Shown here: positions 6,908 through 63,261 of the stretch, piece after piece
Position numbering within the stretch: position 1 is the first letter of the stretch
How the letters are laid out: each line of letters starts with the position of its first letter
DNA from: an uncultured Methylomirabilota bacterium
GTDB taxonomy: Bacteria > Methylomirabilota > Methylomirabilia > Methylomirabilales > 2-02-FULL-66-22
Assembly (NCBI GenBank): GCA_963695995.1
Contig: CAVOIV010000029.1
Coordinates: forward strand, 19-64,018
Direction of reading: 5' to 3'
DNA: 64,000 nt
Position numbers and translations under genes: made by a program
Notes under the pieces: generated by a model
The model's input: only the letters and a program-made list of their open reading frames with translations
Told to the model about the DNA's origin: nothing
Database searches by the model: none

Positions 6908-7385
6908 GTGAGAGCCCTACGCCTCCTGGTTTCCAACGGCGAGGAGATCGCCTCCGGGTCGCTCCTTCGTCCTCATGTCGCTCGCCACCTTCGGAAACGT
7001 TGTGGCGCGGTACTTCTTCAATAGCCCGATCGAGTGGGCTGAGGAATTCTCCCGCTACGCCTTCATCTGGATCGTCTTCCTGGGGGCTGCCGTGTGCACC
7101 AAGCATGGGCGTCACATCGTGATTGACGGCCTTGCGCTCGCCCTCCCCCCCGGGTGCAGGCCGGTCTGCGGTGGCTCGTGGACGTCCTCACCTTCGCACT
7201 GATGGTCGTGTTGGCGTACTACGGCTGGCTCCTGACGATCTTCACGACGCAGCCCACGTCGACCCTGTACGTGCCGATGTCGGTCGTCTACGTGGTCGTG
7301 CCCGTGTCCGCGCTCATCGCGCTACGCTCCCTGGGGAGCCTCGGACGGCGCATCCGCAGAGCCGCGGCAGGGAGGCGGGCGATGA
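6908..7385 (+). CDS. dctQ: TRAP small permease (DctQ), frame-disrupted (about 2 breaks)
   Basis: GTG start after GGAGGG. VRALRLLVSNGEEIASGSLL continues in phase 0 (MSLATFGNVVARYFFNSPIEWAEE) and then phase 2 (LRWLVDVLTFALMVVLAYYG). One break lies in the C7 run at 7145-7151. Confidence 0.75.
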
Positions 7386-8658
7386 TCACGCTGTTTCTCC
7401 TGATGCTGGCCCTCTTCGCCATCGCCATGCCCGTCGCCTGGTCCATGGCCATGGCCAGCACCGTCTACATGGTCCTCGGCCCGAAGATCCCCTTGCAGGC
7501 TGTCATACAGCGGATGATCGGCGGGATCGACACGTTCCCGCTGCTGGCGATCCCCTTCTTCATTCTGGCCGGCAACCTGATGAACACGGGAGGCGTCACC
7601 GACCGACTGGTGCGTTTCTCGAAGGCCCTGGTCGGCCACATCCGGGGCGGACTGGCGCACGTGGTCGTGGTCACCAACATGATCATGGCCGGCATGTCCG
7701 GTTCGGGGATCGCGGACGCGGCGGGCTCCGGAGCGGTGCTCATCCCCGCGATGCAGCGGGCGGGGTACGGCGTGCCCTTTGCGGCAGCCGTCGTCGCCGC
7801 GGCCGGCACCATCGGTCCCATCATCCCCCCCAGCATTCCCTTCGTCATTTACGGCTCCCTGGCGAATACCTCCATCGGACGGCTCCTCTTGGCCGGCGCG
7901 GTGCCCGGCGTCCTGATGGGTATCATGCTCATGGCGTACATCTGCGTGGTCGCCAGGCGGCGCGGTTATCCGGCCGAGATGCGCGCAAGCCGCCGCGAGC
8001 TTGCAGGCGGCGCTCCAGGCCATTCCGCCCATGGGGATGCCGATCATCATCCTGGGCGGCATCATCGTCGGCGTCATGACGCCGACGGAGGCGGCGGCGG
8101 CCGGCGCGACGTATGCCTTCGTGCTCGGCTTCTTCGTCTACGGCGAACTGCGGCTCCGCGACCTCCCCAAGATTCTGACCGAGTCGGTTGGGAACGGCCG
8201 CCGTCGCCATCATCATTTCGGCGGCCCAGCCGATGAGCTGGATTCTCACCTACGAGCAGGCGCCCATGAAGGTGCTCGCCCTCTTCCAGGACGCGCAGTT
8301 GTCGAAGGCGGTGCTGCTGCTGATCTTCAACGTGATTCTGCTGATGCTCGGCTGCTTCATGGAAGGGTTGGCGGTGATGGTGATGGCGGTCCCCGTGTTG
8401 ATGCCGCTCCTCCAGTCGGCCGGGATCGATCCGCTCCACTTCGGGGTGGTGTTCGTCCTCAACGCCATGATCGGCACCATCACCCCGCCCGTCGGCACCA
8501 TCATGTACGTGGTCTGCGCCTTGGGCAAGATCTCGATCGGGCAGTTCAGCCGGGAGGCCTGGCCGTTGATCGTCACCCTCATTCTCTGCCTGGGGATTGT
8601 GACCTACGTGCCGATTCTCTCGACGTGGCTTCCGGATCTCTTGATGCCGCTGCGCTGA
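7382..8658 (+). CDS. dctM: TRAP large permease (DctM), frame-disrupted (2 breaks near 7995 and 8195)
   Basis: MITLFLLMLALF...FPLLAIPFFILAGNLMN...HIRGGLAHV continues in two other phases (IPPMGMPIIILGG..., then TAAVAIIISAAQPMSW...ITPPVG). Confidence 0.85.
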
Positions 8659-8933
8659 GGCGCAAGGAATTTCGCTTTGCGTCGGCGTAGACACCGCATT
8701 CTCGCCCACGCGCGTGTCGTCTGCCCTCACCAGGCGGTCCCATGTGGCCGCACGCACGCCCTCGATACGCACCGTCCCAGCAACTCTCAGGATGGGCTGC
8801 CCAGAATCTCGCCGGCCGTGTGGCGCGAAGCGCGGCCCATGCCAGAGACGAGGCCTGACGACGGGCCTTCGTCGCCGCCCGAACGAGCCTCCAGTGGCCT
8901 CCAAGCGCCTATTGCACACCGGAGCTTTCTCGC

Positions 8934-8962
8934 TTGACACTCCTCGTCGCCGGTGTTAGCGT
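8934..8962 (+). promoter_or_regulatory. Candidate sigma70-type promoter upstream of the LIV operon
   Basis: TTGACA, 17 nt, TAGCGT, about 190 nt upstream of the binding-protein start. Confidence 0.25.
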
Positions 8963-9153
8963 CCCCGCCAGTTCTGATTTCCCCCGTATCGTCTCCCCCG
9001 GTTCGGCCCTGCCCTGGCCGATCGCGCTCCGTCGGCCGTGGCGCCGGCCGGTTGTCTAGCTTCCTAGTCTTGTTCTTGTCTATCCGGTTCCGGTGGGACG
9101 GCTTCGCCAGCGAATGGCCGGAGGGGCATGAGGCGGCATAGGAGGGTCATGCC

Positions 9154-10453
9154 ATGCGGAACCGATCGGCTCACGGGACCAAGGGGTTGACGCGGCGGCA
9201 GGTCCTGAAGGGCTGCCGCCGGCGTCGGTGCGGGGGTTGGCTTCATCGGCAACTGGCGCTGGGCGCGGGCGCAGGCCAAGAAGCCGATCCTCATCGGCCT
9301 CACCTGCGATGCCACGGGCACTTTCGCCGATAGCGGCCAGGCCGAGCGGCGTGGGATGATCCTGGCCATCGAGGAGTTCAACGCCAAGGGCGGCGTCCTG
9401 GGCCGGCCCATCGAGCACAAATGGGAGGACACCGAAACCGACGCCTCCGTGGCCGTGCGCAAGGCGCAGCGGCTCATCGAGCGGGACAAGATCGACTTCA
9501 TGATGGGCGCCCTCTCGAGCGGCGTGGCCGCCCCGCTGTCGGAGCTGGCCCAGCGGTACGGGATCATCTACTTCAACAGCAACTCGAGCTCCGATACGGT
9601 CACCAACGAGAAGTGCCAGCGGGTGAATTTCGTCTGGGACGCCAACAACTGGATGTTCGCCAACGCCCTCGGCCCGCTGGTCGCCAAGGACCTGGGCAAG
9701 AAGTGGTTCCTCCTGACACACGACTATGTCTGGGGAAAGAACGCGACGGCCGTCACCCGGGACGTCATGAAGAAGGTGGGCGCGGAGGAGATGGGCGAGC
9801 TGTTCATCCCGCAGGGCGCGCGCGATTTCAGCGCCCAGCTCCTCCGGATCCGGAGCGTCAAGCCCCAGGTGGTGATCGCCAACATGGCGGGCATTGAGCA
9901 GACGGCCCTGCGGGAGCAGGCGGCCGAGTTCGGGGCCGAGAAGGACGCCGCCTGGGTCTTCCCACAGCAGGATTTCCCCGACATGGTGACGCTGGGACCG
10001 AAGAAGTCATTCGGGTATTTCTGCACCACGTGGCACTACACGCTGAACGAGCCCGGTGTGAAGGAGTTCACCGAGCGCTTCCGGAAGCGCTGGGCCAACG
10101 CGCCGATCCCCGTCCCGGACAACGTCTCCTGCAACGGGTACCTCGCCGCGCGGGAGCTGCTGCGCGCCGTCGAGCGGGCCGGCACGACGAAGAGCCATGA
10201 CGTCATCAAGGCGCTGGAAGGGCACGTGATCAAGGATAACTTCCGGAAGTATCCGTCGGTGATCCGGGAATGGGACCACCTGGTGGGGCAGATGCTCTAC
10301 CTGGCCCGCACCAAGAAGGAAAGCGAGATGAAAGAGAAGTACGACATGATCGATATGATGTCCGCCGTCCCACCCGAGGTCGCGTCGCCGCCGCGGGAGG
10401 TCTCCACGTGCAAGATGCAGTCGTACGCCGAGACCCCGGTCTACGGCGGATAG
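9154..10453 (+). CDS. livK: Branched-chain amino acid ABC transporter substrate-binding protein (LivK-like), 1 frame break near 9213
   Basis: RBS GGAGGG, then ATG and a Tat-like LTRRQVLKG. The mature part (KKPILIGLTCDATGTFADSGQAERRGMILAIEEFNAKGGVLG...) is in the next phase (ORF 9356..10453). Confidence 0.85.
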
Positions 10454-10537
10454 CCGTCCCGGTCGCCACCACCGCGGCATGTACGGCGCGGCGGCGGTGG
10501 ACCACCTCCCCTCGCCGTCCAGTGTGAGGATTCCCGC

Positions 10538-11410
10538 GTGCCTCCGGTAACCGAGCTGATCACGCACCTGCTCAACGGCCTCGTCCTCGGCCTCCTCTAC
10601 GCCGTCATCGCCCTGGGCTTCATGCTCATCCTGGGCACCATGGAGGTGATCAACTTCAGCCACGGCGCCCTCTTCGCCTTGGGAGGCTACTTGGCCCTCG
10701 CGCTCCAGCCGCACGTGGGCTGGTGGGCCGCGCTGGCACTGGCGCCCGTGGGGGTGGGGCTCGTCGGGCTGCTCATGGAGTTCGGCGTGCGCCGGACCTA
10801 CGGCAGGGACCCTCTCTTCGGGCTGCTCTTCACGTTCGGCGCTGCCTTGGCGCTGGAGGAGCTGATCCGGATCGTCTGGGGATCACGGGATACACCATCT
10901 CGGCCCCGGCCTTCGTCGCGGGGCCGTTCCAGGCGGGTTTCTTCTTTACTCCAAGTACCGGGTCCTGGTCGCTGTGCTCGCCGTGCTCCTGCTGGGCGCC
11001 GTCTGGTAGTTCCTTGACCGGACCCCGTACGGCGCGATCGTCAAGGCCGGCGCCTACGACAGCGAGATGGTTCGCGCCCTGGGGATCGATCTGGCCCGCG
11101 TGCGGAACCTGGTGTTCGCGCTCGGCACCTTCATGGCAGGCATCGCCGGCGTCATCGCGGCGCCCATGTGGAGCCTGAAGCCGACCATCGGCGCCGAGGC
11201 GGTGATGCCCGCCTTCATCGTCGTGGTGATCGGCGGGATCGGCTCCTTCTGGGGAGCCATCCTCGGCGGACTCATGGTGGGGCTGGCCAGCGGCCTGTCC
11301 AACCTGGTCGTGCCACGGGGTCTGTTCTGGTCATGTACCTGCTGCTGGCGGTCGTCCTGCTCTGGCGCCCCCGGGGACTGATGGGCCAGAAGAGCATGCT
11401 GGAGCTCTAA
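10538..11410 (+). pseudogene. livH: LivH-type ABC permease, 3 frame breaks plus an in-frame TAG
   Basis: LNGLVLGLLYAVIALGFMLILG...NFSHG runs through phases 2, 1, 0 and 2. In-frame TAG at 11007-11009 (AVW*FLDRTPYG). The tail MYLLLAVVLLWRPRGL lies in ORF 11168..11410. Confidence 0.8.
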
Positions 11411-11446
11411 TGCGATCAGTTCCTCGCCGAGTGGACCCCGCTGCCG

Positions 11447-13219
11447 ATGCTGGGCATGTTCGCCCTGTTCCTCGTCCTGCCGGCAATTCTTCCCTGGATC
11501 GGCGGCTACACCTACCTGGGCACGGAGGTCATGATCTGGGCCATCTTCGCCCTGGGCTACAACCTGCTGCTCGGCCATACCGGCCTCCCGGCGTTCGGCC
11601 ACGGCGCGTTCTTCGGATTGGGCGGCTACTTCCTGGGCATGAGCCAGAAGTGGGTGGACCGGGGGGCTCTGGCTGCCCCTGCTGATCGGCACGCTGGGGC
11701 GGCCGTTTGCGGCGCCGCGGTGGCGCTGTTCGTCGCTCGGAAGCGAGGAATCTATTTCGCGCTGCTGACCATCGCCTTCGGGACCATGTTCTGGTTCGCG
11801 GTCTTCGTCCTGGATGCCTGGACGGGGGGCGAGGACGGGCTGACCGGCATCAGGCGGCTCGCCGTGGGCATCCCCGGGCTCTTCGAGATCCCGCTGCAGG
11901 ATAACCTCGCCTTCTACTATTTCGTCTACGCCCTCTTCGTCGCCCTCACGGTCGTCCTCTGGCGCATCGTCCGCTCCCCCTTCGGCCAGGTCATCCAGGC
12001 GATCAAGCAGAGCGAGAGCCGGGCCTCCGCGCTGGGCTACGACACCGCCCGCTACAAGTGGGCGGTCTTCACCCTGAGCTGCGCCTTCGCGGGATTCGCC
12101 GGCGGGCTCTACAGCCTCGCCCGGTTCGGGGCGTTCCCGGAGCCGATGAGCCTGCACCAGTCGGGCAATGTGGTCCTCATGTGCCTCGTCGGCGGCGGGT
12201 TCGCCAGCTTCTACGGCCCCGTCCTGGGCGTCGCGGTCTTCCTGGTGCTGCGCGACCTCTTCTCCACCCTGACGGATCACTGGATGCTCCTGTACGGCCT
12301 CCTGTTCATGGCCATCATCCTGTTCTTGCCCGAGGGGATCCTCGGATTGACGCAGCGGAAGCGGCGGCCGGCGTCCTCCCACGACACCGGCGCGAGCCCA
12401 GGCGGCCCGCGGCGAGGGTGCCGCCTCCGGCGGACCCCGATGAGCGCCAGCGAGGCGACCGCTCCCCTCCTGGAGGCCCGCGGCCTGCGGAAGGCCTTCG
12501 GCGGCAACGTCGTCCTGGACGATGTCAATCTCCAGTTCCAGGCGAGGCGCGTCTCGGCCCTCATCGGGCCCAACGGGGCGGGCAAGACCACGTGCTTCAA
12601 CCTCCTCACCGGCGTCCTGGCCCCGGATCGAGGTGAGATCCGTTACCGTGGGCAGGACATCACGGGCCTGTCCCCCGACCGGCGCGCCCGCCTGGGGATG
12701 TGCCGTTCGTTCCAGATCCTGAACCTCTTCAACGACTACACCGTCCTGCAGAACGTCCGGGTGGCGGTGCCGGCCATGCGGCAGCGCGGCTTCAACCTCT
12801 GGACGCCCGCCGGCGCCGTGCGCGAGGCGGAGGACAAGGCCGCCGGCGTCATCCGACTGATCGGTCTGGCAGGGCGCGAACACGTCGAGGCGAAGTATCT
12901 GTCCTACGGCCAGCGCCGCCTCCTGGAGATCGGCGTGGCCCTGGCCGGCGAGCCCGACCTGCTCCTGATGGACGAACCGACGAGCGGCCTGGGCGGCCGC
13001 CCCCTGGAGACCCTTCGGGAGCTGGTCCAGCGCCTCTCGGAGGCGCTCACCATCGTGGTCATCGAACACGACATGAGCTTCGTCCTTTCCCTGTCCCACC
13101 ACATCAGCGTGCTCCACCAGGGCGCCGTGATCGCCGAGGGACCTCCCGCCGCGATCCGGGAAAACGCCGAGGTCCGCGAATGCTATCTGGGAACCCTCAA
13201 GTACGCCCGGCGGACGTGA
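11447..13219 (+). CDS. Fused LivM-type permease / LivG-type ATPase (590 aa single ORF)
   Basis: N-terminal half has permease motifs (GHTGLPAFGHGAFFGLGGY). C-terminal half is an ABC ATPase (GPNGAGKTT, LSYGQRRLLEIGVALA, LLLMDEP). A short out-of-frame patch sits at about 11657-11700. Confidence 0.85.
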   Translation: MLGMFALFLVLPAILPWIGGYTYLGTEVMIWAIFALGYNLLLGHTGLPAFGHGAFFGLGGYFLGMSQKWVDRGALAAPADRHAGAAVCGAAVALFVARKRGIYFALLTIAFGTMFWFAVFVLDAWTGGEDGLTGIRRLAVGIPGLFEIPLQDNLAFYYFVYALFVALTVVLWRIVRSPFGQVIQAIKQSESRASALGYDTARYKWAVFTLSCAFAGFAGGLYSLARFGAFPEPMSLHQSGNVVLMCLVGGGFASFYGPVLGVAVFLVLRDLFSTLTDHWMLLYGLLFMAIILFLPEGILGLTQRKRRPASSHDTGASPGGPRRGCRLRRTPMSASEATAPLLEARGLRKAFGGNVVLDDVNLQFQARRVSALIGPNGAGKTTCFNLLTGVLAPDRGEIRYRGQDITGLSPDRRARLGMCRSFQILNLFNDYTVLQNVRVAVPAMRQRGFNLWTPAGAVREAEDKAAGVIRLIGLAGREHVEAKYLSYGQRRLLEIGVALAGEPDLLLMDEPTSGLGGRPLETLRELVQRLSEALTIVVIEHDMSFVLSLSHHISVLHQGAVIAEGPPAAIRENAEVRECYLGTLKYARRT

Positions 13220-13948
13220 TGTCGACGGAGCGGCCCCTGCTGGTCGTCGAAGGCATCGACACCTTCTACGGGGATGCCCAGGCGCTGAACGGCCTGTCGC
13301 TCACCATCGGGTCCGGCGAGACGGTCTGCCTCCTGGGCCGGAACGGCCAGGGCAAGACCACCACCATCAAGAGCATCCTGGGCCTGGTCCCGCCGCGGAG
13401 AGGCCGCATCACCTTCGACGGCGCGGACATCACGCACCTGCCGACCCACCGGATCGCCAGCCGGGGGATCGCCTGGGTGCCGGACAACCGGCGGATCTTT
13501 CCGACGCTGACGGTGGAACGGAACCTGGAGATGGGGCTGCATCGGGCGCTGCCCTGGGCGGGAGACGGGGCGGAGTGGACGCTGGATCGGATCTACGCGC
13601 GCTTTCCCGATCCTCGGCGGACTGAGACACCGGAGCGGTGAGCACCTGAGCGGCGGCGAGGCTCAACTGGTCGCCATCGCCCGCGCCCTGCTCATGGGTC
13701 CCAAGCTGGTCCTCCTGGACGAGCCCTCGCAGGGCCTCGCGCCCAAGATCGTGGAGGACCTCATGGCCGTGATCGAGGAGATACGCGAGGAGGGTATCGC
13801 CATGCTCCTGGTGGAGCAGAACTCCTCGCTGGCGCTCGGCATCGCCCATCGCGCCTACGTCGTCGACGACGGCCACATCGTCCACACCTCAGGCGCGGCG
13901 GACCTCGACAATAACCCCGAGTTGAAGACCCGCCTCCTGGCCGTGTAA
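13219..13948 (+). CDS. livF: LivF-type ABC ATPase, 1 frame break near 13609
   Basis: GRNGQGKTTT Walker A. After ...IYARFP the frame shifts by +1 to ILGGLRHRSGEHLSGGEAQLVAIARALLMGPKLVLLDEPSQGLAP. The start overlaps the upstream stop (TGATG). Confidence 0.88.
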
Positions 13949-14090: not shown

Positions 14091-15081
14091 ATGACGGAAG
14101 CACGCACACCGCAAGGGACGCCCATCGCCGTCATCGGGGCCGGCACCATGGGGGCGGGGATCGCGCAGATCTTCGCCCAGGCCGGATACCCCGTGCGCCT
14201 GCAGGCGCGGAAGCGCGAGACGCTGGAGGCGGCGCTTCGCCGGGTCCGCGTGAACCAGGACGAGCTGATCCGGCACGACCTCCTCGCTGCGACGGATGCC
14301 GAGGCGGCGCGCGGGCGGATCACGGTGACGCAGGATCTCAAGGAGGCCCTGGCTGGTGCCGCCTTCGTCAGCGAGAACATCCCCGAGCGGCTCGACGCTC
14401 AAGCAACCCCTCTTCGCCGAGCTGGATCGGCTGACGCCGCCCGAGACGATCCTTTCCACCAACACTTCCAGTCTGCCCATTACCCAGGTCGCCCGCGACA
14501 CGAAGCATCCGGAACGCGTGGTCGGCTTCCACTGGTTCAATCCGCCGCACCTGATTCCGTTGGTCGAGGTCATCCGCGGCGACCGGACGGCGGATGCGAC
14601 CATGGACGAGACCTATCGCCTGGCCCAGGCCATCGGCAAGTCCCCCATCCGGGTGCAGAAGGACATCCCGGGCTTCGTCGGGAATCGGCTCCAGCGCTCT
14701 CTGGAGCGAGAGTTCTTCTATCTGGAGCGGATCGGCGCCTGCAGCGGCGCGGACCTGGAGGTCGCGCTGAAGCAGGGTCTGGGCTTCCGCTGGTCGGTGG
14801 TGGGTCCGCTGGAGCACGCCGACCTGGCTGGCGTCGATACGCACTCGGCCACCGTGTCGCTGCTCTTCCCGCTCCTCTCCACCGACACCGAGCCGCCGCC
14901 CCTGTTCGCGGACCTGGTGGCCAAGGGCCGTCTGGGCGCGAAGACGGGCGCGGGCGTGTACGAGTACGGCCCGGGCGAGGTCGAGCGCATCCTGGCCCGA
15001 CGGAACACCATGCTGATTGACTTCATCAAGGTGCTGAAGAAGCACCCACCGCTGCGCGGGCCGAGCCTCCACGCCGAATAG
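14091..15081 (+). CDS. 3-hydroxyacyl-CoA / 3-hydroxybutyryl-CoA dehydrogenase family, 1 frame break near 14397
   Basis: IAVIGAGTMGAGIAQ Rossmann motif. After ENIPERLD the frame shifts by +1 to LKQPLFAELD...GFHWFNPPHLIPLVEV...GFVGNRL. Confidence 0.85.
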
Positions 15082-17619: not shown

Positions 17620-18866
17620 ATGAGCGTTCAGGCAGAACTGGTGGCGATCGGCTCGGAGCTCCTCCTGGGGCAGATCATCGACACGAACACGGCATTCATC
17701 GCGAAGCGCCTGGCGGAAATCGGCGTCGAGGTGGTCCGCACCGCCACCGTGGGGGATTCGCTCGAGCGGATGGAGGGCGTGCTCCGGGACGCGATCCGGC
17801 GGTCGCAGATCGTCATCACCACGGGCGGGATCGGCCCCACGGAGGACGACCTCACCCGCGAGGCGATTGCCAACGTGACCGGGCGGCCATTGACGTTTCA
17901 GCCGCACCTCATGGAGCAGATCAGGGCCCTCATCGAGCGACGAGGGTTCAAGATGGCCGAGAACAACCGCGTCCAGGCCTTCATCCCCGAGGGGTCGATC
18001 GCGATTGAGAACCCCAAAGGAACCGCCCCGGGCTTCATCGTGGAAGGAGACGGGTACTGTACCGCCACGCTCCCCGGCGTCCCATCGGAGATGTATTTCC
18101 TCCTGGACGCGACCGTGATCCCCTACCTCCGGACCCGATTCGGATCTAACGCAGGGAAGTATTGCGGTACAAGGTCCTCCGCGTCTGCGGACTCGGGGAG
18201 AGCGCCATCGGGCTCCAGATCAAGGATCTGATGAAGGAGAGCAAAAATCCGATCGTGGGGACGCTCGCGGCCATCGGCGACGTCCGCATCCGGATCGCCG
18301 CACGCGCGGACAGCCCCGAGGAAGCCGACACCCTGATCGGCGCCATGGAGAGCGAGATCCGTCGGCGCCTCGGCATCCTGATTTACGGCGTGGACGATGA
18401 GACGCTCCAGGGAAACACGGCGGCTCTTCTCGCGCGAAATGGGTTTCGCCTGGCCGTCGTCGAGACGTTCACGGGAGGCGCCATCGCCCATCGGTTTGCT
18501 GGAACGGGGAGCGCTGCGTTTTCCGAGGGAATCGTCCTTCCCGGCGTGGACGCGCAGCGGGGGTTCCTGGGGTGCTCGCCGGACGGTTACGAGACGCTCG
18601 TCAAGGAACCTGCCCGTCTCGCCGCTGCGCTGGCCGACACGGCACGATCCCGATTCGGCGTCGACGTGGCCCTGGCGAACGTCGGGGTGTTCCGGCCCGA
18701 GGAGGGCAGGCCCGAGCACAAGGGTGAGAGCCACACCGCGCTGGCGACGGCACGGGGTTCCGTTCCGAACAACCAGGTCCTCGGCGGGGAGCTTCCCATG
18801 GTCCGCGAACGCGCGACGATCCTGGCCATCGACCTGCTCAGGAAGACGCTCTTGGCGGAATCGTAG
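17620..18866 (+). CDS. cinA: CinA-family competence/damage-inducible protein (MoCF plus NMN deamidase domains), 1 frame break near 18150
   Basis: VAIGSELLLGQIIDTNTAFIAKRL...TTGGIGPTEDDLT, then the frame changes to YKVLRVCGLGESAI...AVVETFTGGAI. Confidence 0.85.
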
Positions 18867-27292: not shown

Positions 27293-27509
27293 CAGGGGAT
27301 CGTCATGGTGGCACCAGCGTATCCGGGCTACCGGTCAAAGGCAAGAGGCGAAGAGCGCCCACCACGGAATGGCGATCGGAAGGGGCCCACGGACGTGCGC
27401 CGTCCGGTGGAGGGGTGCGGTGACCACAGCCCCGCTGGCACACGCCCGCTCGATCGTGGCCGTCGCCCCGCACGTCGGCGCCGGATTCCAGGCGCCAGGG
27501 CAAATCCCC

Positions 27510-51348: not shown

Positions 51349-53255
51349 CTAGATGATCTGGCTGTGGTAGCTGGCCTGAACGTCCTCGCACCAGTTCCCC
51401 ACGTTCCAGACGCCGTAGGCGCCGAGGCCGCCCAGCGGATCGGGTCCGTAGTAGACCGGCACGTGCACCAGCGAGAGCCCCTCGTGCCGGGACGCCTCCG
51501 TCAGGGCGACCCACAGCGCGTCCGGGGTGTCGCCGCCCGAGAGCGCCTTCACCCCGGGCACCGCCGAGGCCAGGCGGACGTAATCCACCGGCACCGCGTC
51601 ATGCGTCCGGAACGCCTCGCCGTACTGCGCCTCCTGCAAGCCCGAGATGGCCGCCATCCGACGATTGTCCAGCAGGAGGATCGTCCCGCGGGCGCCGTGC
51701 AGGACGCCGTCCACCAGGACCTGCGGATTCATGAAGAACGACCCGTCCCCGCTGAAGGCGATCCCGTACTGCGGCCGGTCCGCCACGCCCGACGCGAGGA
51801 GTGCGCTCACCGCAAACCCCATGTGCGAGGCCCCTGTCTCCGTGATCGTCTGGTTCGGCTCGTCGTCCTCCGCCACCTGGAATCCGACCGCCTGCACATC
51901 GCCGGCGTCGAAGAACTTCACGGCGCGAATGCTGTTGGCGAAGTCGCAGGCGATCTTGATCGCTGCGGGCTGCGTCAGGACGGGCCGCCCCCACATCGGC
52001 GTCGCGCAGGACCGGGTGGGCGTAGCGCTCGGCCTTGAGGGCTTGCCATTCCCGCTTCTTCGCCGCCGTGGCGTCGAGCCAGGCCTCGGCCCGTCCCAGG
52101 TCGACCCCGCCCTGCTTCTGGAGCGCCTCCCGGAGCTGACCGATCACGACCCCGATATCCCCCGCCAGGGCCACGGTCCGGTTGTAGTGGGTGACGTCGC
52201 CGAGGTCCGCGTTGATGTTGATCACGGCGGACGCCGACGCGTAGCCCGTCCCCGAGCAATCCGCCTGACACACCCCCCGCGACCCGATGACGATCAGGAG
52301 GTCGGCGTGGCTGGTCGCATAGTTGCCGGAGAGCGACCCCTTGCTCCCCATCACGCCCATGTTCCGCGGGTGCTCGTCGGGCAGCACCCCGAGCGCGCCG
52401 GGCGACAGCACGGCGACGCGCACCGATCGCCTCGACGAGGGCCCGCACCTGCCGGGCAAAGGCGCGGGCGCCACCGCCCACCTTGACGACGATCCGGCGA
52501 TGCGTCTGGATGAGCCCGAGCGCTGCGGCCACGATCGCCGGATCCCCGACCGCCATGGGTGGCGGCGCGAGCGGCCCGGGAAGCGCCTCCAGGTTCAGGC
52601 GCGCGATCCGCGCCGGCTGGGTATTGAGCGGCAGGAGCAGAAAGAACGGACCGGCCCGGAACGAGCGGTGGACGGCCAGGCTCCCGCGGCGCAGCGCCGC
52701 GCGCAGGGCCTCGGGCGTGTGCAGGACGTAGGACTCGCCCATCAGGGCCGTGAGCTGGCCGAAGAGGCCCTGCGCGTGCTTGGGGATGGCCTGCATGTTC
52801 GGCCCCTCCCCGTGGGTCGTCTCGTCCCCGTAGATGTGGTAGACGCCGATCCCGTTGGACGCGGCGGCGAGCGAGCCCGCAAAGGCATGCAGCGCCCCCG
52901 GCCCGATGGAGGTCACCACCGCGGCCGTCTCGCCGTAGTGCCACTTCAGCGCGGTGGCCGCGTGGGCCATGGCGGTCTCGTGGCGGAAGTTGTAGGTCCG
53001 CGTGAGGCCGGCGGCCTCATAGACCCGGAGCACCTCCGCGAGATCCGTGGAGCCGTGCCCGAAGACCGCCAGGTACTTCCGCACGCCTTGCTTCAGGAGG
53101 CCCAGGACCAGACCTTCCGCCAGCGTCGTGTCGATCGGATTGGGGAGCGTGCCGCCCGCCAGCGCCGCCTCGAGGCCGCCCGCCTCCGCGATCGTCTGCG
53201 CCCGCCGCTCCATGGCGATCAGCCGCGCGACGTGCTGCTTCGGAATCTGCCCCAT
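51349..53255 (-). CDS. Thiamine-pyrophosphate-dependent enzyme (acetolactate synthase / IolD-like), 2 frame breaks near 52440 and 52005
   Basis: FGHGSTDL...FRHETAMAHAA at the N-terminus, a middle domain, and the TPP motif GDGSFFMN...LLLDN. The protein runs through three successive phases. Confidence 0.8.
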
Positions 53256-53487: not shown

Positions 53488-54784
53488 TCAGTGTGCCTTC
53501 CCGGCAGCCGTGTAGGCCTGATCCAGGATCTGGCTCACGTGGCGCACCTGGACGGGCAGGCCCTTGCGGCGCGCGCCGTAGCTCAGATGCATCATGCAGG
53601 CCGGGCATTCGGTGGCCAGGATGGCCGCGCCGGTCTTCTCCACATTGCCCATCTTCCGATCCAGGACCCCCGTGGCCTCTTCGTGGTGGAGGAAGGTGTA
53701 GCTCCCCGCCGCGCCGCAGCACCAGTCGGCCTCCGGCAGCTCCTTGTACGTCATGCCCGGCACGGACTTCAGGAGCTTTCGCGGTTGCGCGGTGATCTTG
53801 GCGAATCGGTTGGATAGGTGGCACGGGTCGTGGTAGGTGACCGTCCCCGAGAGCGTCCCGAGGCTCCCGTTCGCCCCGACCCCCACCAGGAACTCGCTGA
53901 AGCTCTGGATCTTCTTGGACAGGGCCGCGGCCTTCTCGGCATGGACCGGGTCGCCCTTGAGCAGATCGCCGTAGTCCTTCAGGTGCGCGCTGCAGCTCCC
54001 GCACTCCGAGACGATGGCGTCCAGTTCCATGGCCGGCGCCAGGCGATCCACGTTCTTCCGGGCGATGTCGCGGGCGGCGTCGAGATCGCCGTAGGAGTGC
54101 GCCGGCCGGCCGCAGCAGGTGTTGTTCGAGGACGGTGACGCGCAGCCGTTCCTGCGCCAGGACGCGCAGCGTGGCCTCGACCACCTCGGGAAACTGGAAG
54201 CTGAGCCCGCAGGAGACGAAGTAGCCGATCCGGTGCTTCACCGTGGCGGGCGCCGGCACCTGCGCGCGCTCCCCGCGCAGGAACGGCTTCGCGATGGACG
54301 GGGGCGCCACCTGGTTGGCCGACCGCCAAGTCGCTTGTCCACGAGGCCCAGGAGGCCGGTCTTCTCCGCCAGCGTCGGCCAGCCCGTGGCGTTTCGCCCA
54401 GAGCGCCATTCGGCCGCCCAACTCGATCTTCTTGCTGTCCGACAGGATCGTCCGGAACAGGATGCGCTGCCACACCGGCTGTCCGTGGCGGGTGATGTAG
54501 GCGTGCCGGATCGCGGTCACGACCTCGTCGGTCTTGAGCGCCGGGAAGCAGTGCGCCGTGCAGCCCCGACAGAGCAGGCAGTCCTCCAGCGCGTGTACCA
54601 CCTCAGGCGTGAGCTCGAGGTTGCCCAGCATCAGGCCGCGGGCGATGGCCATACGGCCGCGGGAGAGGGAGTGCTCCTCGCCCGTCACCCGGAACACCGG
54701 GCAGCCGGCCTGGCAGAATCCGCACCGATTGCACTTCGCGATGGCCTCGTGCAGGGGAAGCAGTTCCGCGATCGCCATGGCCAC
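53488..54784 (-). CDS. glcF: Glycolate oxidase iron-sulfur subunit (GlcF-like), at least 1 frame break near 54120
   Basis: CNRCGFCQAGCP and CLLCRGCTAHCP clusters, then CCG-domain motifs (NTCCGRP, YHDPCHL, WCCGAAG) in ORF 53488..54051. Confidence 0.85.
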
Positions 54785-54802
54785 ACTCCCTGATAGGCTT
54801 AG

Positions 54803-54949
54803 GGTTCCTGTAAACCCGATTCCCCAGGCTGCTCAAAAAGGCTCAGATGCAAGGCGGCATGCCGTAGACCGAGCGAGGCGTACTGGAGGTACGCCGCAGC
54901 GAGTGGCGAGGCGGGCCAACGCCGCAGATGGGCCGTTTTCAGCGAACTG
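54803..54949. repeat. Imperfect-palindrome intergenic repeat (MITE/ERIC-like), copy 3, flanked by TTAG/CTAG
   Basis: The core at 54825-54949 is near-identical to copy 1. It abuts the glcE TAG stop (54950-54952). Confidence 0.85.
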
Positions 54950-56315
54950 CTAGAGCCCGCCGAGGAATCGTCCCGGGTTGCAAAGTCCCCGAGGATCGAA
55001 TTCCGTCTTGAGTCGCCGCATCACGCCGAAACCGTCGCCCGGCTTTCCCCACGCGTCCATGCGCGCCTTGAGAGAGGCGGGGGCGTCCTGCAGGATCAGG
55101 CTCCCCTCCACCGCCTCCGCCTCGCGCCGCAAGCCTTCCAGCGCATCGGCCAGTACCTCGTCCGGCGGCGCCTTCGGGCCGAGCAGGTAGCACGCCCAGA
55201 CGACGCCGTTGCCGGCGTGCGCGATCACGGTCGCGTGCATCCCGTGGCGGCGGCCCAGCGCCCCGGCGGACGCCAGCAGCTCGCCGGTCCGTCCGATGGG
55301 GACCGCGATCTTGCAGAGAGCGCGGGTGGCCGGGGGGACCGGAAGAAGGCCGAAGACGTTGCGGATGGCGTCCCAGGCCAGGACCGTCTTCCCGTCCGGG
55401 AGAGGCGTCGCGCGGCCGCCCCGGTCCCGGAAAATCGTGGCGAAATCCCGCGCCTGTCGCTCGACCGTCGCTGCGCTCCCGGCCAACGCCACGGCGAGGC
55501 CGTAGGCGCCGGCGGGCGCCTCCAGACCGAGACGCGGCGCCAGCAGTGCCACCGCTGCGGGATCCAGGAGATCCAAGGCCTCCGGAAGCAGCACCGATTC
55601 CAGTGTCGTCGCCACGACGGCGGTCGCCTGCGAAAGCTCCGGGAACCACCCGACGACGCCGGCCCGCACTGCGGGCACGGGTAAGAGCTTGAAGGTGACC
55701 TCCGTGACGATGCCCAGCGTGCCCAGGCTTCCGATGAACAGCTTGTTCATGTCGTAGCCCGAGACGTTCTTGATGACCTTGCCGCCGCAGTGGATACGCT
55801 CCCCGTCGGGCAGGGCCACCCGCATGCCCAGCACCCAGTCCCGCGCGGTCCCGTAGAGGAGCCGGCGACGGCCCGCTCAGGTTGGTCGCCACCAGGCCGC
55901 CGACGGTGACCTTGCCGTCGGCCGGCGGGTCGAGCGGGAGGATCTCGCTCTTCTGGGCGAGCGTCGCCTGGAGGCCGGCGAGCTTCACGCCCGCCTCGAC
56001 CGTCACGCAGAGGTTGGCGGCGTCGAACTCGACGATCCGGTCGAGTCGGTCGAGCGGCATCGCCACGTCCGCGCGGGCCGGGCGGTTCCCCAGCCCGATG
56101 GCGGTCCCGCCCCCCCAGGGGATGACCGCCGCGTTGGCGGCGGCGCAGGCTGCCAGGACCTTGGACACCTCGTCCTGCGTCCCCGGCCGAACCACGACCC
56201 CCGGCAGCACGCCGTCCACGCCGAGCTTGACCGTGGCGGCGGGACCGACGCCCACGTGCTCGGCGCCGACGATCTTCTCCAGTTGCCCGCGGAGTCCTGC
56301 GAGGTCAGGCTGCAC
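54950..56315 (-). CDS. glcE: Glycolate oxidase FAD-binding subunit (GlcE-like), 1 frame break near 55860
   Basis: FAD_PCMH N-terminus (VVVRPGTQDEVSKVL...IPWGGGTAIG) continues in ORF 54950..55834 (GMRVALPDGERIHCGGKVIKNVSGYDM). Confidence 0.82.
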
Positions 56316-57706
56316 GGCGCACCTCCTCCGGAAGCGGGAACATCTTCCCGGGATTGGCGAGGTTCTTCGGGTCGAAGGCCTGCTTGACTCGCACCTGGCT
56401 GCGGATGTCGGCCTCGGTGAAGACCAGGCGCATGGCGTCGATCTTCTCCAGACCCACGCCGTGCTCCCCGCTGATGGTGCCGCCCATCTCCACGCAGAGC
56501 TGCAGGATCTCCATCCCGGCCTTCATGACTCGGGCCTTCTGGTCCGCGTCCCGCCAGTCGAACAGGATCAGGGGATGCAGATTACCGTCGCCGGCGTGGA
56601 ACACGTTGGGGATCTGGAGATTGTACTTCTGGCCCACCTCGGCCACCTTGCGGAGTACTTTGGGCAAGGCGGTGCGGGGGACCGTGCCGTCGCAGACCAG
56701 GTAGCTCGGCGTGATCCGCGCCACCGCCCCGAAAGCGCCGCGCCGGCCGGCCCAGAGCAAGGCCCGCTCGGCGTCGTCCTTGGCGACCCGGACCTCGCGC
56801 GCGCCGTGCGTCGTGCACAGATCCACGATGGCCTGTGTCTGGGCTTCCAGGTCGTCCGTCGAGCCCGTCCACCTCGATGATGAGCACCGTCGCGCAGTCC
56901 AGGGGCAGACCGCAGTGGATCGACTCTTCCACCGCCTTGATGACCAGCTGGTCCATCATCTCCAGCGTGGCCGGGACCATACCGGCGGCCACGATGGCCG
57001 AGACGGTCTCGCTGCCTTCTTCGATGCCGTCGTAGATCGCCAGCATCGTCTTCACCCCTTCGGCGAGCCGCACGATGCGCACCACCACCTCGGTGCAGAT
57101 CCCGAGCGTGCCCTCGCTGCCCACGAAGACCCCGGTGAGATCGTAGCCCGGCGTGTCGGCAGCCTTGCCGCCGATCGTCGCCACCTCGCCGTCCGGCAGG
57201 ACCACGGTCAGCCCCAGCACGTGGTTGGTGGTCACGCCGTACTTGAAGCAGTGGGGGCCGCCGGAGTTCTCGGCCACGTTGCCGCCCAGGGTGGCCGCCT
57301 TCTGGCTGGCGGGATCGGGAAGGTACTGGTAGCCGAGGGGCGCCAGCGCGGTGCCCAGCTCCAGATTGAAGAGCCCGGGTTGCACCCGGGCCCGCAGATT
57401 GGAGCGGTCCACCTCCAGGATCCGGTTCATCCGGATCATCTCGAGGACGATCCCGCCCTTGAAGGGAATGGTGCCGCCACTGAGGTTCGTTCCCCCGCCG
57501 CGCGGCACGAAGGGGACGTCGTACTTGTTGCAGGCCCGCACGACGCCGGCCACCTCGTCCGTCGAGGCGACGAAGACGACCGCATCCGGCCGCCGCTCCT
57601 CGAGATAGGCATCGTACTGGTAGAGCTGAAGATCGACACCGGAGTCCTTGACGTTCGCCTTGCCCACGATCTGTCGGAGTTCATCCACGAATGGTCTGGG
57701 AACCAT
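56305..57706 (-). CDS. glcD: Glycolate oxidase subunit GlcD (FAD-linked oxidase), 1 frame break near 56850
   Basis: VPFVPRGGGTNLSGG and GGNVAENSGGPHC, then ORF 56305..56826 (NVFHAGDGNLHPLI, SGEHGVGLEK). Confidence 0.88.
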
Positions 57707-58042: not shown

Positions 58043-59276
58043 ATGCGATTGCCCGCCGGCCTGCGCGCGCTCCACCATCGCGACTTTCGCCTGTTCATCT
58101 CCGGCCAGCTCGTCTCGCTGATCGGGACCTGGATGCAGAGCGTCGCCCAATCCTGGCTGGTCCTGGAATTGACCAACTCTCCATTCAAGCTCGGCCTGAT
58201 CGGCACGCTGCAGTTCGGGCCGATGCTGGGCTTTTCCTTCGTGGCCGGTGCCATCGCCGACCGATTGCCCAAGCGCCGCTTGATCATCGGCACCCAGACC
58301 GCGCTCATGCTCCAGGCGTTTACACTGGCGCTCCTGGCCCGGACGGGCCACGTGCAGTACTGGCACGTGGCCGTCCTGGCCGTGTGCTATGGACTCGCCA
58401 ACACGCTCGACATGCCCACCCGGCAGTCCTTCATCGTGGAGATGGTCGGCAAGGACGACCTCGCCGAGCGCCATCGCCCTCAACTCCGCCATGTTCAACG
58501 GGGCGCGGATGATCGGGCCGGCCGTCGCCGGCCTGCTGGTGGATCGGTTCGGCGTGGCCCCCGCCTTCGGGCTGAACGGGCTGAGCTTCGTGGCCGTGAT
58601 CCTCGCCCTGGCGGCGATGCGGACCGAGGGCTTGCCGCGCGAGCGGGAGGGCACGACCGTCCGGCAGGACATCGCGGCGGGCCTCCGCTACGCCGTCGGG
58701 ACGCCCCTCGTCGCGCTGATCCTGAGCCTGCTCCTGGTCGTCAGTCTCTTCGTGATCAACCACAACGTCCTCGTGCCGCTCTTGGCGCGCGACGTCCTCC
58801 ACGAAGGGGCGCACGGGTTCGGCCTGCTCATGGCCGCCCTGGGAATCGGCGCGGTAGTCGGGGCGCTCGCCCTGGCCATGCTGGGTCGAAGCCGGCCGCC
58901 CCTGCCCCTCCTCATCATCGCCGCGGCCATGGCCTCGGCGCTCACGCTCGGGCTGGCGGTGATCCGCCACTTCCCGTCCGCCGTCGTCCTCCTGGCCCTG
59001 ACCGGCCTCTCCCAGATCGTGTTCATGGCCAGTTGCAACACCACGCTGCAGATGGTGGTCCCGGACAGGCTGCGAGGGCGGATCATGAGCCTGTACGCCT
59101 TCGTGTTTGTCGGTGTGACACCGATCGGCTCGTTTTTCGTGGGGGCGCTGGCGGAGTGGTTCGGGACGCCGATGGCGTACGCGGCGGGCGGCGGCCTGGG
59201 GCTGCTCTCCGTCCTGGCGCTCACCCTCCTGTGGTGGCGCGGCTGGGGACGCGCCGCCTCGCGTCCGGAGGTCTAG
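58043..59276 (+). CDS. MFS transporter (EntS/DUF894-like), 1 frame break near 58470
   Basis: LRALHHRDFRLFISGQLVSLIGTWMQSVAQSWLV...DRLPKRR continues at +1 in ORF 58389..59276 (AIALNSAMFNGARMIGPAVAG...). Confidence 0.82.
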
Positions 59277-59515: not shown

Positions 59516-60665
59516 ATGAAGCGACTGGCGATTCTGGGTTCGACGGGATCCATCGGGACGCACACGCTGGATGTGGTGGCGAGCCATCCGGACCAGTTCG
59601 AGGTCGTGGCGCTGGCGGCCGGCAACAACGTGGACCTGCTGGAGCGGCAGGTCCGCCGGTTCCGCCCCCGGTTTGTCGCGCTGGCCGACGAAACGCGAGC
59701 GCGGGAGCTGGCCCGACGCCTGGACTCCCTGACGACCGAGGTGGGTTGGGGGAGCGACGGGGTGCTGCCAGGCGGCCGCCGACACCGGGGCGGACATGGT
59801 CGTGTCGGCCATCGTGGGCGGGGCCGGCCTGGTGCCGACCATGGCGGCGCTTCGCGCCGGGAAGACGCTGGCGCTGGCCAACAAGGAAACCCTGGTGATG
59901 GCGGGAGCCTTGGTGACCGCCGAGGCCCGGGCCCGCGGGACGCGGATCCTGCCCGTGGACAGCGAGCACTCCGCCATCTTCCAGTGCCTGGACAATGGCG
60001 ACACCGGCTCGGTCCGGCGGATCGTCCTCACGGCCTCCGGCGGGCCGTTCCGGACGCTGCCCCAGAAGGCGTTTGCCGCCATCACGCCCGAGGACGCCCT
60101 GCGGCACCCCACCTGGTCCATGGGGAAGAAGATCACCATCGACTCGGCCACGCTGGTCAACAAGGGGCTGGAGGTGATCGAGGCCCAGTGGCTGTTCGGG
60201 CTGCCGGTGGACCAGGTGGACGTCATCGTGCATCCCCAGAGCGTCGTCCACTCCATGGTGGAATACGTGGACGGCTCGTTCCTGGCCCAGCTCGGGGTGC
60301 CGGACATGCGGCTGCCGATCCAGTACGCCCTGACGTACCCCGAGCGGCGGGTCTGCCCCGCCGCGCGACTGGCCCTGGAAGAGCTGCGCGTGTTGACGTT
60401 CGAGGCGGTGGACCGGGAGAAATTCCCCTGTCTGGACCTGGCGTACGAGGCGGCGCAGGGCGGGCGGCTCGTGGCCGGCGGTCCTGAACGCCGCCAACGA
60501 GGTGGCCGTCCAGTGGTTCCTGGATCGCCGCATCGGCTTCGACGAGATTCCCGCGGTCATCCGGAAGGCCCTGGATGCCCACCCCCATCGCGCCATCTCC
60601 AGCGTGGAGGACGTCCTGGAGGTGGACCGGAAGGTGCGAGAGCGAGACTCGAGCAGCGAGCCTAG
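59516..60665 (+). CDS. dxr: 1-deoxy-D-xylulose-5-phosphate reductoisomerase, at least 2 frame breaks (near 59770 and 60475); 3' end uncertain
   Basis: LAILGSTGSIGTHTLDV, LALANKETLV, DSEHSAIFQC, LTASGGPF and NKGLEVIEA lie in three successive +1 phases. The phase carrying the C-terminal helix stays open past the rseP start, so the stop at 60663-60665 is provisional. Confidence 0.88.
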
Positions 60666-60733
60666 AGCCGCGATGCAGGATCGGCGCTCATCTAGGCTCG
60701 TGGCTCGGCACTGGCTCGAACAGTGGAGTTCGC

Positions 60734-62086
60734 ATGACGATACAGACGATCGTGGCAGCGGTGGTGGTCCTCGGGGCGCTGATCTTCTTCCACGAGCTCG
60801 GCCACTTCCTGGTGGCCAAGCGGGCGAAGGTCGGGGTCCTGAAGTTCTCCCTGGGTTTCGGCCCGAAGCTCGTGGGCGTGAAGCGCGGCGAGACGGAGTA
60901 CCTGCTGTCCGCCCTCCCGCTCGGCGGCTACGTCAAGATGATCGGCGAGGACCCGGGCGACGAGTCGCCCGAGGCGACCGACCCGGCGCGCTCCTTTTCG
61001 AAGAAGAGCGTCGGCACCCGGTCGCTCATCATCCTGGCCGGGCCGCTGGCCAACCTCATCCTCCCCGTCCTGATCTTCTGGGGCATCTTCATGTTCGTCG
61101 GCCAGTCCTACTTCCTGCCGGTGGCGGGCTCGCCGGAGAAGGATTCGCCGGCGGCCAAGGCGGGCCTCACCGTGGGGGACCGAGTCCAGGCGATCGACGG
61201 ACAACCCATCGAGCGGTGGGACGAGGTCGAGACGGCCCTGCGGACGTCGGCGGGCCGGCCGCTGACGCTGACGATTCTTCGCGACGGGCGGACCACGGAT
61301 GTCCAGGTGGAGCCGCGGGTACAGAAGACGCGGGACCTCTTCGGTCAGGACGATCGAGGTGTGGGATCTTGGGCTGCACCCGCTGGTGTCCACCCGGATC
61401 GGGCAGGTCCTGCCGGGCCAGGCGGCGCAGCAGGCCGGCATCCGCAGCGGCGATCGCGTCGTGGCGGTGAACGGCAACCCCGTGGGCGAGTGGGACCAGC
61501 TCGCCAAGATCATCCACGGCAGCCCCGGCACGCCGCTCACGCTCACGCTCGAGCGGGAGGGGCAGCGCCACGAGGTCGAGGTGACCCCGCGGAGCACCAA
61601 GCAGCAGGGGCCCAGCCGGCGAGGAGGAGATCGGCCTGATCGGGATCGGGCCGGCGCCGGAATCCCAGCTTCGCCGCCTGAATCCCGTCTCTGCTGCGTG
61701 GGCGGGCGTGACGAAGACGGTGGATCTCTCGGTCCTGGTCGTGACCGGGCTTCGTGAAGCTGGTCCAGGCGAAGATCTCGCCCAAGACCATCGGCGGGCC
61801 GATCCTCATCGCCCAGATGGCCGGCGAGGTGGCCCAGCGGGGCATCGATGGATCTGCTCTCGTTCACGGCGCTCCTGTCCATCAACCTGGCGATCCTCAA
61901 TCTCCTGCCGATTCCCGATTCTGGACGGCGGGCACCTGCTCTTTTCGCTTGATCGAGTGGCTGCGGGGCAAGCCGGTCAGCCTGCGCAAGCGGGAGATCG
62001 CCCAGCAGGTGGGCATGGTGCTCCTCGTGGGGCTCATGGTCTTCGCGTTCTACAACGACATCTTCCGCTGGCTGGGCCAGCCATGA
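60734..62086 (+). pseudogene. rseP: RseP-type site-2 metalloprotease (M50, PDZ), about 6 frame breaks
   Basis: FFHELGHFLVAKR, LGGYVKM, PDZ segments, LSINLAILNLLPIP, ILDGGHLLF and [11 protein letters not shown] appear in phases that advance by +1 six times. Confidence 0.88.
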
Positions 62087-62094
62087 GTCGGGCC

Positions 62095-63261
62095 ATGGAG
62101 TATCGCGCCGATCCGTCGCGAGGCGACGGACTTCGGCCCGTTCACCGAGGTCGCCCCCCTCCGCATCGCGTCCGCCCGCTCCTACGGCCGGCGGCCGACG
62201 CGCCAGATCCAGCGTGGGCAAGGTGCCGGTCGGCGGGAATGCGCCCATCTCGGTCCAGTCCATGACCAAGACCGACACGCGCGACGTCCAGGCGACCGTG
62301 GACCAGATCTGGGCGCTGGAGGCGGCGGGGTGCGAGATCGTGCGGGTGGCGGTCCCGGACGCCGACGCGGCGGCGGCGATCGGCCGGATCCGATCCCAGA
62401 TCCGCATTCCCGCTCATCGTGGACATCCACTTCGATTACCGGCTGGCCCTCCAGTGCCTGGAGGCCGGCGTGGATTGCCTGCGGATCAACCCCGGCAACA
62501 TCGGGGCCACCTGGCGGGTGCAAGAAGTGACCAAGGCGGCGGCCGAGCGCAAGGTGCCCATCCGGATCGGCGTGAACGCGGGGTCGCTGGAGAAGCATCT
62601 CCTGCAGCGGTTCGGCGAGCCGACGCCGGAAGCCCTGGTGGAGAGCGCGCTCTTCCACATCCGGATCCTGGAGGAGCTGAACTACCCCGAGATGAAGATC
62701 TCGCTCAAGTCGTCCGACCCGCGGATGATGATCGAGGCCTACCGGCTGCTGGCCGACAAGGTCCCGTACCCGTTCCACCTGGGGGTGACGGAGGCCGGGA
62801 CCGCCTTCACGGGGGCGATCAAGTCGGCGGTCGGGATCGGGACGCTGCTGGCCGAGGGGATCGGCGACACCATCCGGGTGAGCCTGACGGAGGATCCGAC
62901 CGAGGAGATCCGGGCCGGCTTCGAGATCCTGAAGGCCCTCGGACTCCGGAAGCGGGGACTCAACGTGATCGCCTGTCCCTCCTGCGGCCGGGTGGAGATC
63001 GACCTGGTCGGGCTGACCAAAGAGGTCGAGAAGCGGCTGGAGGCGCTCAACATCCAGCGGACGCTGAACGTGGCGGTGATGGGCTGCGCGGTCAACGGCC
63101 CGGGCGAGGCCCGCGGGGCGGACATCGGGATCGCCGGCGGCCACGGGGTCGGGATCCTGATCAAGAAGGGGCAGATCGTCCGGAAGGTCAAGGAGTCGGA
63201 GCTGGCCGACGTCCTGGTGGAAGAGGTGCAACGGTTGGCCGCCCAGAGCCGGCGGACGTAG
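62095..63261 (+). CDS. ispG: 4-hydroxy-3-methylbut-2-enyl-diphosphate synthase, 2-3 frame breaks (near 62212 and 62410, possibly 62115)
   Basis: RRPTRQIQ, then [22 protein letters not shown]...CEIVRVAVP, then [13 protein letters not shown]...RINPGNIG...CPSCGR...[11 protein letters not shown]. The start codon is uncertain. Confidence 0.88.

Follow-up and report, generated by a model that had tools for sequence, protein, structure and literature searches.

Genuine pseudogene decay in bacteria is deletion-biased. Frame breaks may also be introduced by sequencing: protein-truncating indel errors are well described in long-read assemblies and MAGs of modest coverage (PMC9262707, PMC13087279, preprint 10.1101/2021.08.23.457338), and the frameshift errors of long-read assemblies, their effects and their correction are treated in the same works and in PMC12007338. 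The window analyzed here, a stretch of 64,000 nucleotides from the draft genome of an uncultured Methylomirabilota bacterium (assembly GCA_963695995.1), has about 60–90 reading-frame breaks in its deposited sequence. Comparison with related genomes indicates, with a probability of about 0.93, that they are errors of the deposited consensus and not mutations of the organism.

Reading-frame breaks in the window

The genes of the window were aligned, in a CDS-guided manner, to the intact orthologues of a congener, G005 (92% identical). For the liv and glc genes the references were G007, G002, G004, G021 and G012. The nearest named relatives are distant, i.e. Methylomirabilota MAGs with 75–79% protein identity. 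Against G005 the window has 83 uncompensated frame-changing indels, including 64 of +1, 8 of -1 and 4 of +2; the liv and glc genes bring about 16 extra events (about 11 of +1 and 5 of -1). The initial annotation, which relied on reading-frame phases, had listed about 60 breaks, mostly net +1: their places and their bias are confirmed, and the count was slightly low. The +1 steps it had put at about 13609, 14397, 24557 and 29197 and the six in rseP are all recovered by the alignments (Table 1). It had also placed some breaks in homopolymers: the C-run at 7145-7151 carries a deletion, and the G-runs at about 11661 and about 11698 correspond to the +1/-1 pair in livM.

The breaks are dense in recD (12 breaks, about 1 per 155 bp), recB (17–21, 1 per 170–210 bp) and the group formed by dxr (3), rseP (6) and ispG (3–4), with 1 per 290 bp; these values agree with the earlier estimate of one per about 170–300 bp. 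The stretches first described as free of breaks are mostly clean, with exceptions. Events occur at 30544 and 31529, and a gene of 331 aa is lengthened to 413 aa by +1 insertions at 31639 and 31676. The interval 37782-37887 is a diverged 5' region, and a pair of events lies at 41466 and 41498.

The gene names initially proposed are backed by partial NCBIfam matches for dctM, the livK/H/F-type genes, the 3-hydroxyacyl-CoA dehydrogenase, cinA, the HtrA protease, sodC, the TPP enzyme, the glcD/E/F-like genes, the MFS gene, dxr, rseP and ispG, and by Pfam matches for recC and recD. The recB fragment of the window has no match in Pfam; here the name rests on the orthologue in G005, a full-length match to TIGR00609. 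The G005 orthologues of dxr, rseP and ispG are likewise full-length family matches. A scan of the window against Rfam gave zero matches.

Table 1. Broken genes of the window, with the positions of their frame-changing events
Feature	Coordinates	Strand	Events and matches
dctQ-like + dctM, TRAP transporter	6893..8656	+	+1 6968, -1 7151 (C-run), +1 7365, -2 8003, -2 8189; dctM family match spans only profile positions 1-193 of 405
livK/H/M/G/F-like, branched-chain/urea-type ABC transporter cluster	8925..13947	+	vs G007 (94% nt identity) and G002 (91%); partial family matches; substrate-binding gene +1 about 9127 and about 9213; livH -1 at 10887, 10947, 11317; livM +1 11419, +1 11652, -1 11699, +1 12397; ATPase gene +1 about 13600
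3-hydroxyacyl-CoA dehydrogenase	14125..15058	+	+1 C 14398
cinA	17620..18856	+	+1 A 18144 and 18153; CinA match ends at profile position 172 of 414
Large membrane protein (initially mscS-like)	22670..25127	+	+1 G 23112 and 24558; 96% nt identity to an intact 822-aa ORF of G005
HtrA-type protease (-) and sodC (+)	25885..29360	mixed	protease +1 27171, -1 27299; sodC +1 T about 29193
recD	42297..44154	-	12 insertions (11 one-base, 1 two-base), zero deletions, net +13; split Pfam matches
Spurious ORF, 1066 aa	44191..47391	-	open across the recB frame shifts; no family match
recB	44317..47950	-	20 insertions and 1 deletion between 44685 and 47082; 17 uncompensated
recC	47945..51167	-	uncompensated +1 49833; two compensated +1/-1 pairs at 48996-49019
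Thiamine-pyrophosphate enzyme	51349..53250	-	+1 about 52000 and 52419
glcF-like, glcE-like, glcD	53502..57706	-	vs G004, G021 and G012, mutually consistent; glcF-like +1 at 54378, 54329, 54321, 54153, 54128 and -1 54140; glcE-like +1 55866; glcD +1 56861
MFS transporter	58043..59276	+	+1 G 58466
dxr, rseP, ispG	59516..63246	+	window ORFs match families only in part; dxr +1 59766, +1 60457, +2 60636; rseP +1 at 61353, 61614, 61747, 61846, 61917, 61949; ispG +1 62118, 62213, 62407, -1 63247

The path of the 1066-aa ORF follows for the most part either the true recB frame or the stop-poor +2 frame. The corresponding frame segments of recB in G005 contain only 2 stops 3' of the first insertion, and 4 over the whole of recB. 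When single recB insertions were undone one at a time, no nearby stop resulted. A process preserving the ORF was considered since its openness seemed non-random, and was judged a coincidence of the 72% GC: the ORF stays open across the shifts because the +2 frame of such a gene is poor in stops.

Extent and sequence context of the indels in the draft

The draft comprises 70 contigs and 5.9 Mb, with a normal gene content. In a genome-wide sample of 191 orthologues, taken from 20+ contigs, 123 (64%) are broken; the 199 kb examined contain 336 events, i.e. 1.69 per kb. Insertions of one base outnumber deletions of one base 253 to 51, the latter making up 1 in 6 one-base events. The inserted base may be any of the four, at any codon phase; the phase counts (91/74/88) are indistinguishable from an even distribution, and the positions of the events along the genes are even by decile. 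The gene rpoB, which lies at 177-181 kb of contig C28 and in G005 is a single open frame of 1328 aa, bears 16 insertions and 1 deletion in the draft; its guided frame nevertheless has 0 stops and gives a protein identity of 96.8%. Judged by marker genes, the draft is 76.9% complete, as against 98% for G005.

The density of events is patchy (variance over mean of 2.1 in 500-bp bins), and 55% of these bins are clean. In the window the error-dense patches lie at 42.5-47.1, 54.1-54.4 and 61.3-62.4 kb. Private indels are absent from the 1.56 kb of the 16S rRNA gene, which is compatible with this patchiness given the share of clean bins, but lends no support to an origin by error. Insertion density is flat between 60 and 72% GC and rises to 3.05 per kb above 72%, as compared with about 1.7. 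A GC-driven failure of polishing was considered and set aside, the overall Spearman rho being 0.02; GC is a minor factor at most.

A concentration of the indels in homopolymers, the subtype typical of older nanopore, 454 and Ion data, was tested and not found. Among the 253 insertions of +1, 178 (70%) have no identical neighbor, against 132 (52%) expected (z = 6).

Origin of the frame breaks

In dxr, rseP and ispG all of the one-base insertions within the CDS (11/11) are private to the window when seven congeners are compared; each congener has 0–1 private frame-shifting indels in these genes, against 11 in the window. The sister-genome orthologues in G005 are intact and full-length, and the insertions are private to this assembly. 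With the frame guided by the orthologues, dN/dS is 0.205 for the broken genes and 0.188 for the unbroken ones, which shows, as judged from substitutions, that purifying selection on the broken genes is the same as on the intact ones. Stop codons in the guided frames number only 2 altogether, both close to poorly aligned ends. RecB reaches 87% protein identity to that of G005 with 0 stops, despite 21 shifts. The indels are also indifferent to essentiality, as rpoB illustrates, and to phase and position. The initial annotation had favored a consensus artefact, and these data strongly support it: the breaks are private, genome-wide, evenly spread over codon phases and gene positions, strike rpoB 17 times and leave dN/dS unchanged.

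In terms of errors of the deposited consensus, the draft would carry, in each kb of coding sequence, about 1.7 frame-changing indels left uncorrected, with insertions making up about 5/6 of the one-base events. The errors would be blind to gene function, codon position and position within the gene, and clustered in patches several kb long. Their source is most likely a low-depth and incompletely polished single-molecule (long-read) consensus. Error density would then track local read depth, and the inserted bases would presumably lack support in the reads. On the strength of the sequence comparisons, the organism most likely has intact, working copies of all the underlying genes (recBCD, dxr, rseP, ispG, liv, glc and the others). 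A few of the events could be genuine differences, for instance the -2 ones in dctM or some that lie at the ends of genes.

An artefact of another kind, the collapse of mixed strains, would keep both alleles side by side at polymorphic sites and so produce one-base insertions unlike their neighbor. The patchiness of the events and the excess of inserted bases unlike both neighbors (70% vs 52%) speak for it. But polymorphism favors third codon positions, so that insertions should flank position 3, whereas the phases are even; and insertion density has no link with substitution divergence (rho 0.07). Given the evenness of the phases, the “both alleles kept” model is unsupported, and strain collapse appears improbable.

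Still less probable is that the insertions are real, i.e. that most genes of the lineage were recently inactivated in an insertion-biased burst of mutation or by mass pseudogenization. They are indeed present in the deposited sequence. However, 64% of the sampled genes are broken, among them rpoB, dxr, ispG and rseP, and a cell with such an rpoB would not be viable. The signs of pseudogenization (deletion bias, nonsense mutations, relaxed selection, sparing of essential genes) are absent here: the ratio of 253:51 is opposite to the deletion bias of bacterial pseudogene decay, nonsense substitutions are essentially missing, dN/dS is unchanged, and rpoB, dxr and ispG are hit. Moreover, the events favor neither a codon phase nor a part of the gene, and the genome, at 5.9 Mb, is large and of normal gene content. 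Just as unlikely is the particular form of a real burst of non-homopolymer single-base insertions, caused e.g. by a defective polymerase or repair, in a non-viable or relic lineage and too recent for other decay to have set in.

Translation that reads across the extra bases, whether by quadruplet codons or by programmed +1 frameshifting, would suit the prevalence of +1 events and the long ORFs open across many shifts, such as the 1066-aa ORF, but it is effectively refuted and hardly credible, since the 252 insertions examined share no context (96 distinct four-base contexts, the commonest occurring only 14 times), any base is inserted at any codon phase, 54/54 tRNAs have ordinary anticodon loops, 1 in 6 one-base events is a deletion and the 1066-aa ORF is accounted for by its stop-poor +2 frame.

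Consequences and comparison with known systems

The biological importance of the breaks is nil, the genes being almost certainly intact in the organism. Their importance for users of the draft is real: gene calling would go wrong for about two thirds of its genes, giving truncated, fused or chimeric proteins or spurious ORFs like the one over recB. Any gene catalogue, pseudogene count, completeness estimate or metabolic reconstruction based on the draft would be wrong, e.g. in showing the MEP pathway or RecBCD as “lost”. The assembly belongs to a set described as one genome per species, and is therefore probably the sole genome there for its species. The insertion-biased signature, which avoids homopolymers, may help to spot other assemblies of the same making.

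Among known systems, endosymbionts that rescue frames by slippage at poly(A) tracts also have frameshifted yet conserved genes. Their slippage needs long homopolymer tracts, whereas the insertions of the draft lie mostly outside runs, in a large and GC-rich genome. Genuine pseudogene accumulation, as in reductive evolution, Mycobacterium leprae and recent host-restricted pathogens, shares with the draft its many frameshifted genes; but that decay is deletion-biased, comes with nonsense mutations and relaxed dN/dS, and spares essential genes, none of which holds here. As for long-read assemblies, the nanopore consensus indels of the literature mainly concern homopolymer length, in contrast to the ratio of about 5:1 between insertions and deletions found here and the 70% without an adjacent identical base. 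In other respects the likeness is close: in assemblies whose errors are measured by IDEEL-type tests of protein length and mended with tools such as proovframe or Kastor, as in this draft, private single-base indels fragment conserved genes genome-wide, marker completeness is lowered, and the density of errors differs from place to place, as it should if it depends on coverage.

Frame breaks in the window and their polarity

The window corresponds to C29:19-64018 of the draft assembly G000, which has 5.94 Mb in 70 contigs at ~66% GC. Among the genomes compared, its congener G005 is closest (~92% DNA identity), with 6 contigs, 98% completeness and 5.4 Mb. Of named public records, Methylomirabilota MAGs come nearest, with 75-79% protein identity. 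The synteny of G005 spans 5.8-59.3 kb of the window, and a second, separate syntenic block covers 59.35-64 kb. Plain blastn of the window against this DNA gives 164 gaps, among them 84 one-base insertions and 33 one-base deletions in the window. The intact high-GC3 ORFs of G005 were each globally aligned to their window counterpart, and pairs of indels offsetting each other within 30 nt were discounted. Uncompensated frame-changing events then number 83, including 64 +1 (one extra base in G000), 8 -1 and 4 +2. The liv transporter cluster and the glcDEF-like genes lack a close G005 counterpart and were compared with other genomes, G007 and G002 (91-94% identity) and G004, G021 and G012 (80-88%), which agree with one another at these genes.

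The breaks noted by the initial annotation (about 60) are confirmed; it slightly under-counted them, and all its named positions are recovered within a few bases. Its gene names hold through partial NCBIfam/Pfam matches of window ORF fragments, except for recB, named only via its G005 orthologue; in G005, dxr, rseP, ispG, recB and recC give full-length family matches scoring over the curated cut-offs. The stretches it held to be clean are largely so, but they do contain +1 insertions at 31639 and at 31676, paired events at 41.47-41.50 kb and, at 37.78-37.89 kb, a 5' region that has diverged. The indels of the diverged 5' gene part are mixed in sign and size, unlike the isolated +1 pattern elsewhere, and probably reflect genuine divergence of the N-terminal region.

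Breaks by gene, and other features located by coordinates
Feature	Position	Observation	Compared with
recD		12 insertions, 0 deletions	G005
recB		20 insertions and 1 deletion, 17 uncompensated	G005
recC		1 uncompensated event and two compensated pairs	G005
rseP		six +1	G005
dxr		3 events	G005
ispG		3-4 events	G005
livH		three -1	non-G005 references
livM		+1, +1, -1, +1	non-G005 references
liv ATPase gene	near 13600	+1	non-G005 references
glcF		five +1, one -1	non-G005 references
glcE, glcD		one +1 each	non-G005 references
Dense patches	42.5-47.1 kb; 61.35-62.41 kb	6-8 events per kb	
ORF of 1066 aa	44191-47391 (-)	open across the recB insertions	
Repeat of ~125 nt	44196-44320; 54820-54916; 51236-51366	also on many other G000 contigs	
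5' part of gene 37000-38046 (-)	37782-38046	~270 nt, 14 small indels	G005
Low-GC region	1-5800	GC 58-61%	64-73% elsewhere
Synteny break	59333-59352		G005
16S rRNA gene	G000:C28:262381-263942	~450 bp off contig end	

When dxr-rseP-ispG of the window is aligned with its counterparts in seven congeners, 11 isolated one-base columns, all in coding sequence, are exclusive to the window, while each congener carries 0-1 private frame-shifting indels. Because these columns are private to the window, the events are insertions that arose on the lineage of G000 or when it was assembled; deletions in G005 are ruled out as their source.

Other features of the window concern its organization. The MFS gene upstream of the synteny break maps to ~779 kb of G005:C2 and dxr-rseP-ispG to ~923 kb; homology with G004 and G012 begins exactly at 59352-59353, and the G005 genes upstream of dxr are missing from the G000 assembly. 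Either a real rearrangement or a mis-join is possible. For the low-GC region, the syntenic part of G005 offers only a short 77% match (4803-5466); the region may be variable or acquired. The interspersed intergenic repeat of ~125 nt, bounded by inverted repeats at its termini (CAGGCTGCTCAAAAAGG ... CCTTTTTCAGCAGCCTG), resembles MITE- or REP-like elements; two query copies give 314 blastn matches over G000 (an estimated 150 copies, roughly), and it is multicopy in G005 as well (92-97% identity).

Selection, genomic scope and essential genes

Four independent lines (selection, scope, essential genes, completeness) point to an artefact. When the window is projected onto the G005 codon frame, extra bases being skipped, pooled dN/dS is 0.205 in broken genes against 0.188 in unbroken ones, with 2 stop codons over all aligned genes. 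RecB, despite 21 shifts, keeps 87% protein identity and has no stop in 1203 codons.

A further 400 kb of G005, from its two largest contigs, were compared with the entire G000 assembly. There, one-base insertions occur at 1.84 per kb and deletions at 0.75 per kb, over 23 contigs. At least one uncompensated break affects 123 of 191 orthologous coding sequences (64%; 199 kb compared), which together hold 336 events (1.69 per kb) with a +1 to -1 ratio of 253:51. Insertions are evenly spread over codon phases (91/74/88) and over gene deciles.

A family search finds rpoB as one open frame of 1328 aa in G005 and as eight fragments in differing frames in G000. When aligned directly, rpoB of G000 has 16 insertions of one base and a single deletion over 3.96 kb, and the guided frame restores 96.8% protein identity with 0 stops. 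No cell is known to be viable with rpoB broken in this way, and a dead gene would not keep such identity. Marker-gene completeness is 76.9% for the 5.9 Mb of G000 (77% vs 98% for its 5.4-Mb congener), the low value being what broken markers produce. The 16S rRNA gene, 98.4% identical to that of G005, showed no private indel, which with so patchy an indel density counts neither for nor against an artefact.

We consider it very probable (about 93%), on sequence grounds, that the breaks are a genome-wide consensus or assembly artefact, which upholds the reading of the initial annotation and extends it to the whole genome. The breaks are not a biological feature, and the "pseudogenes" of the window, recBCD and the genes of the MEP pathway among them, are best handled as intact genes that the assembly renders wrongly.

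Alternative explanations

Strain collapse, in which the consensus keeps both SNP alleles side by side, would account for inserted bases unlike their neighbours, but the insertions would then be expected beside third codon positions, and the even phases do not show this. Quadruplet decoding or programmed frameshifting that reads through the extra bases is rejected, since 252 sites present 96 different four-base contexts and the anticodon loops are ordinary in all 54 tRNAs of G000. A tRNA-SeC is likewise encoded in G000.

The 1066-aa ORF over recB looked non-random, and gives no match in the family search. Segment by segment, it mostly keeps either to the true frame or to the +2 frame, in which stops are rare. 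The matching frame segments of G005 contain 2 stops past the first insertion and 4 over the whole recB, and undoing single insertions one by one exposes no nearby stop. We reject an ORF-preserving process at recB, the open frame being a by-product of 72% GC; it shows how the assembly would feed long chimeric "proteins" into gene catalogues.

Signature of the probable errors

The inserted bases (C 90, G 78, A 53, T 32) approximate genome composition, G and C being commonest. An identical neighbour is lacking for 178 of 253 (70%), against 132 expected under random insertion (z = 6), and deletions too fall mostly outside runs. Density is over-dispersed (variance over mean 2.1 in 500-bp bins), and several-kb clean stretches adjoin the dense patches of the window. 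It has no relation to substitution divergence (rho 0.07) nor to GC, save above 72% GC (3.05 vs ~1.7 per kb). This insertion-dominated, substitution-poor profile, outside homopolymers and patchy at the kb scale, fits an incompletely polished single-molecule consensus of low and uneven depth.

The truncation of proteins by indels of long-read assemblies is well documented and is coverage-dependent (PMC9262707, PMC13087279, PMC12007338, preprint 10.1101/2021.08.23.457338). The nanopore consensus error of the literature is of the homopolymer-length type (PMC9262707), from which the signature of G000 differs.
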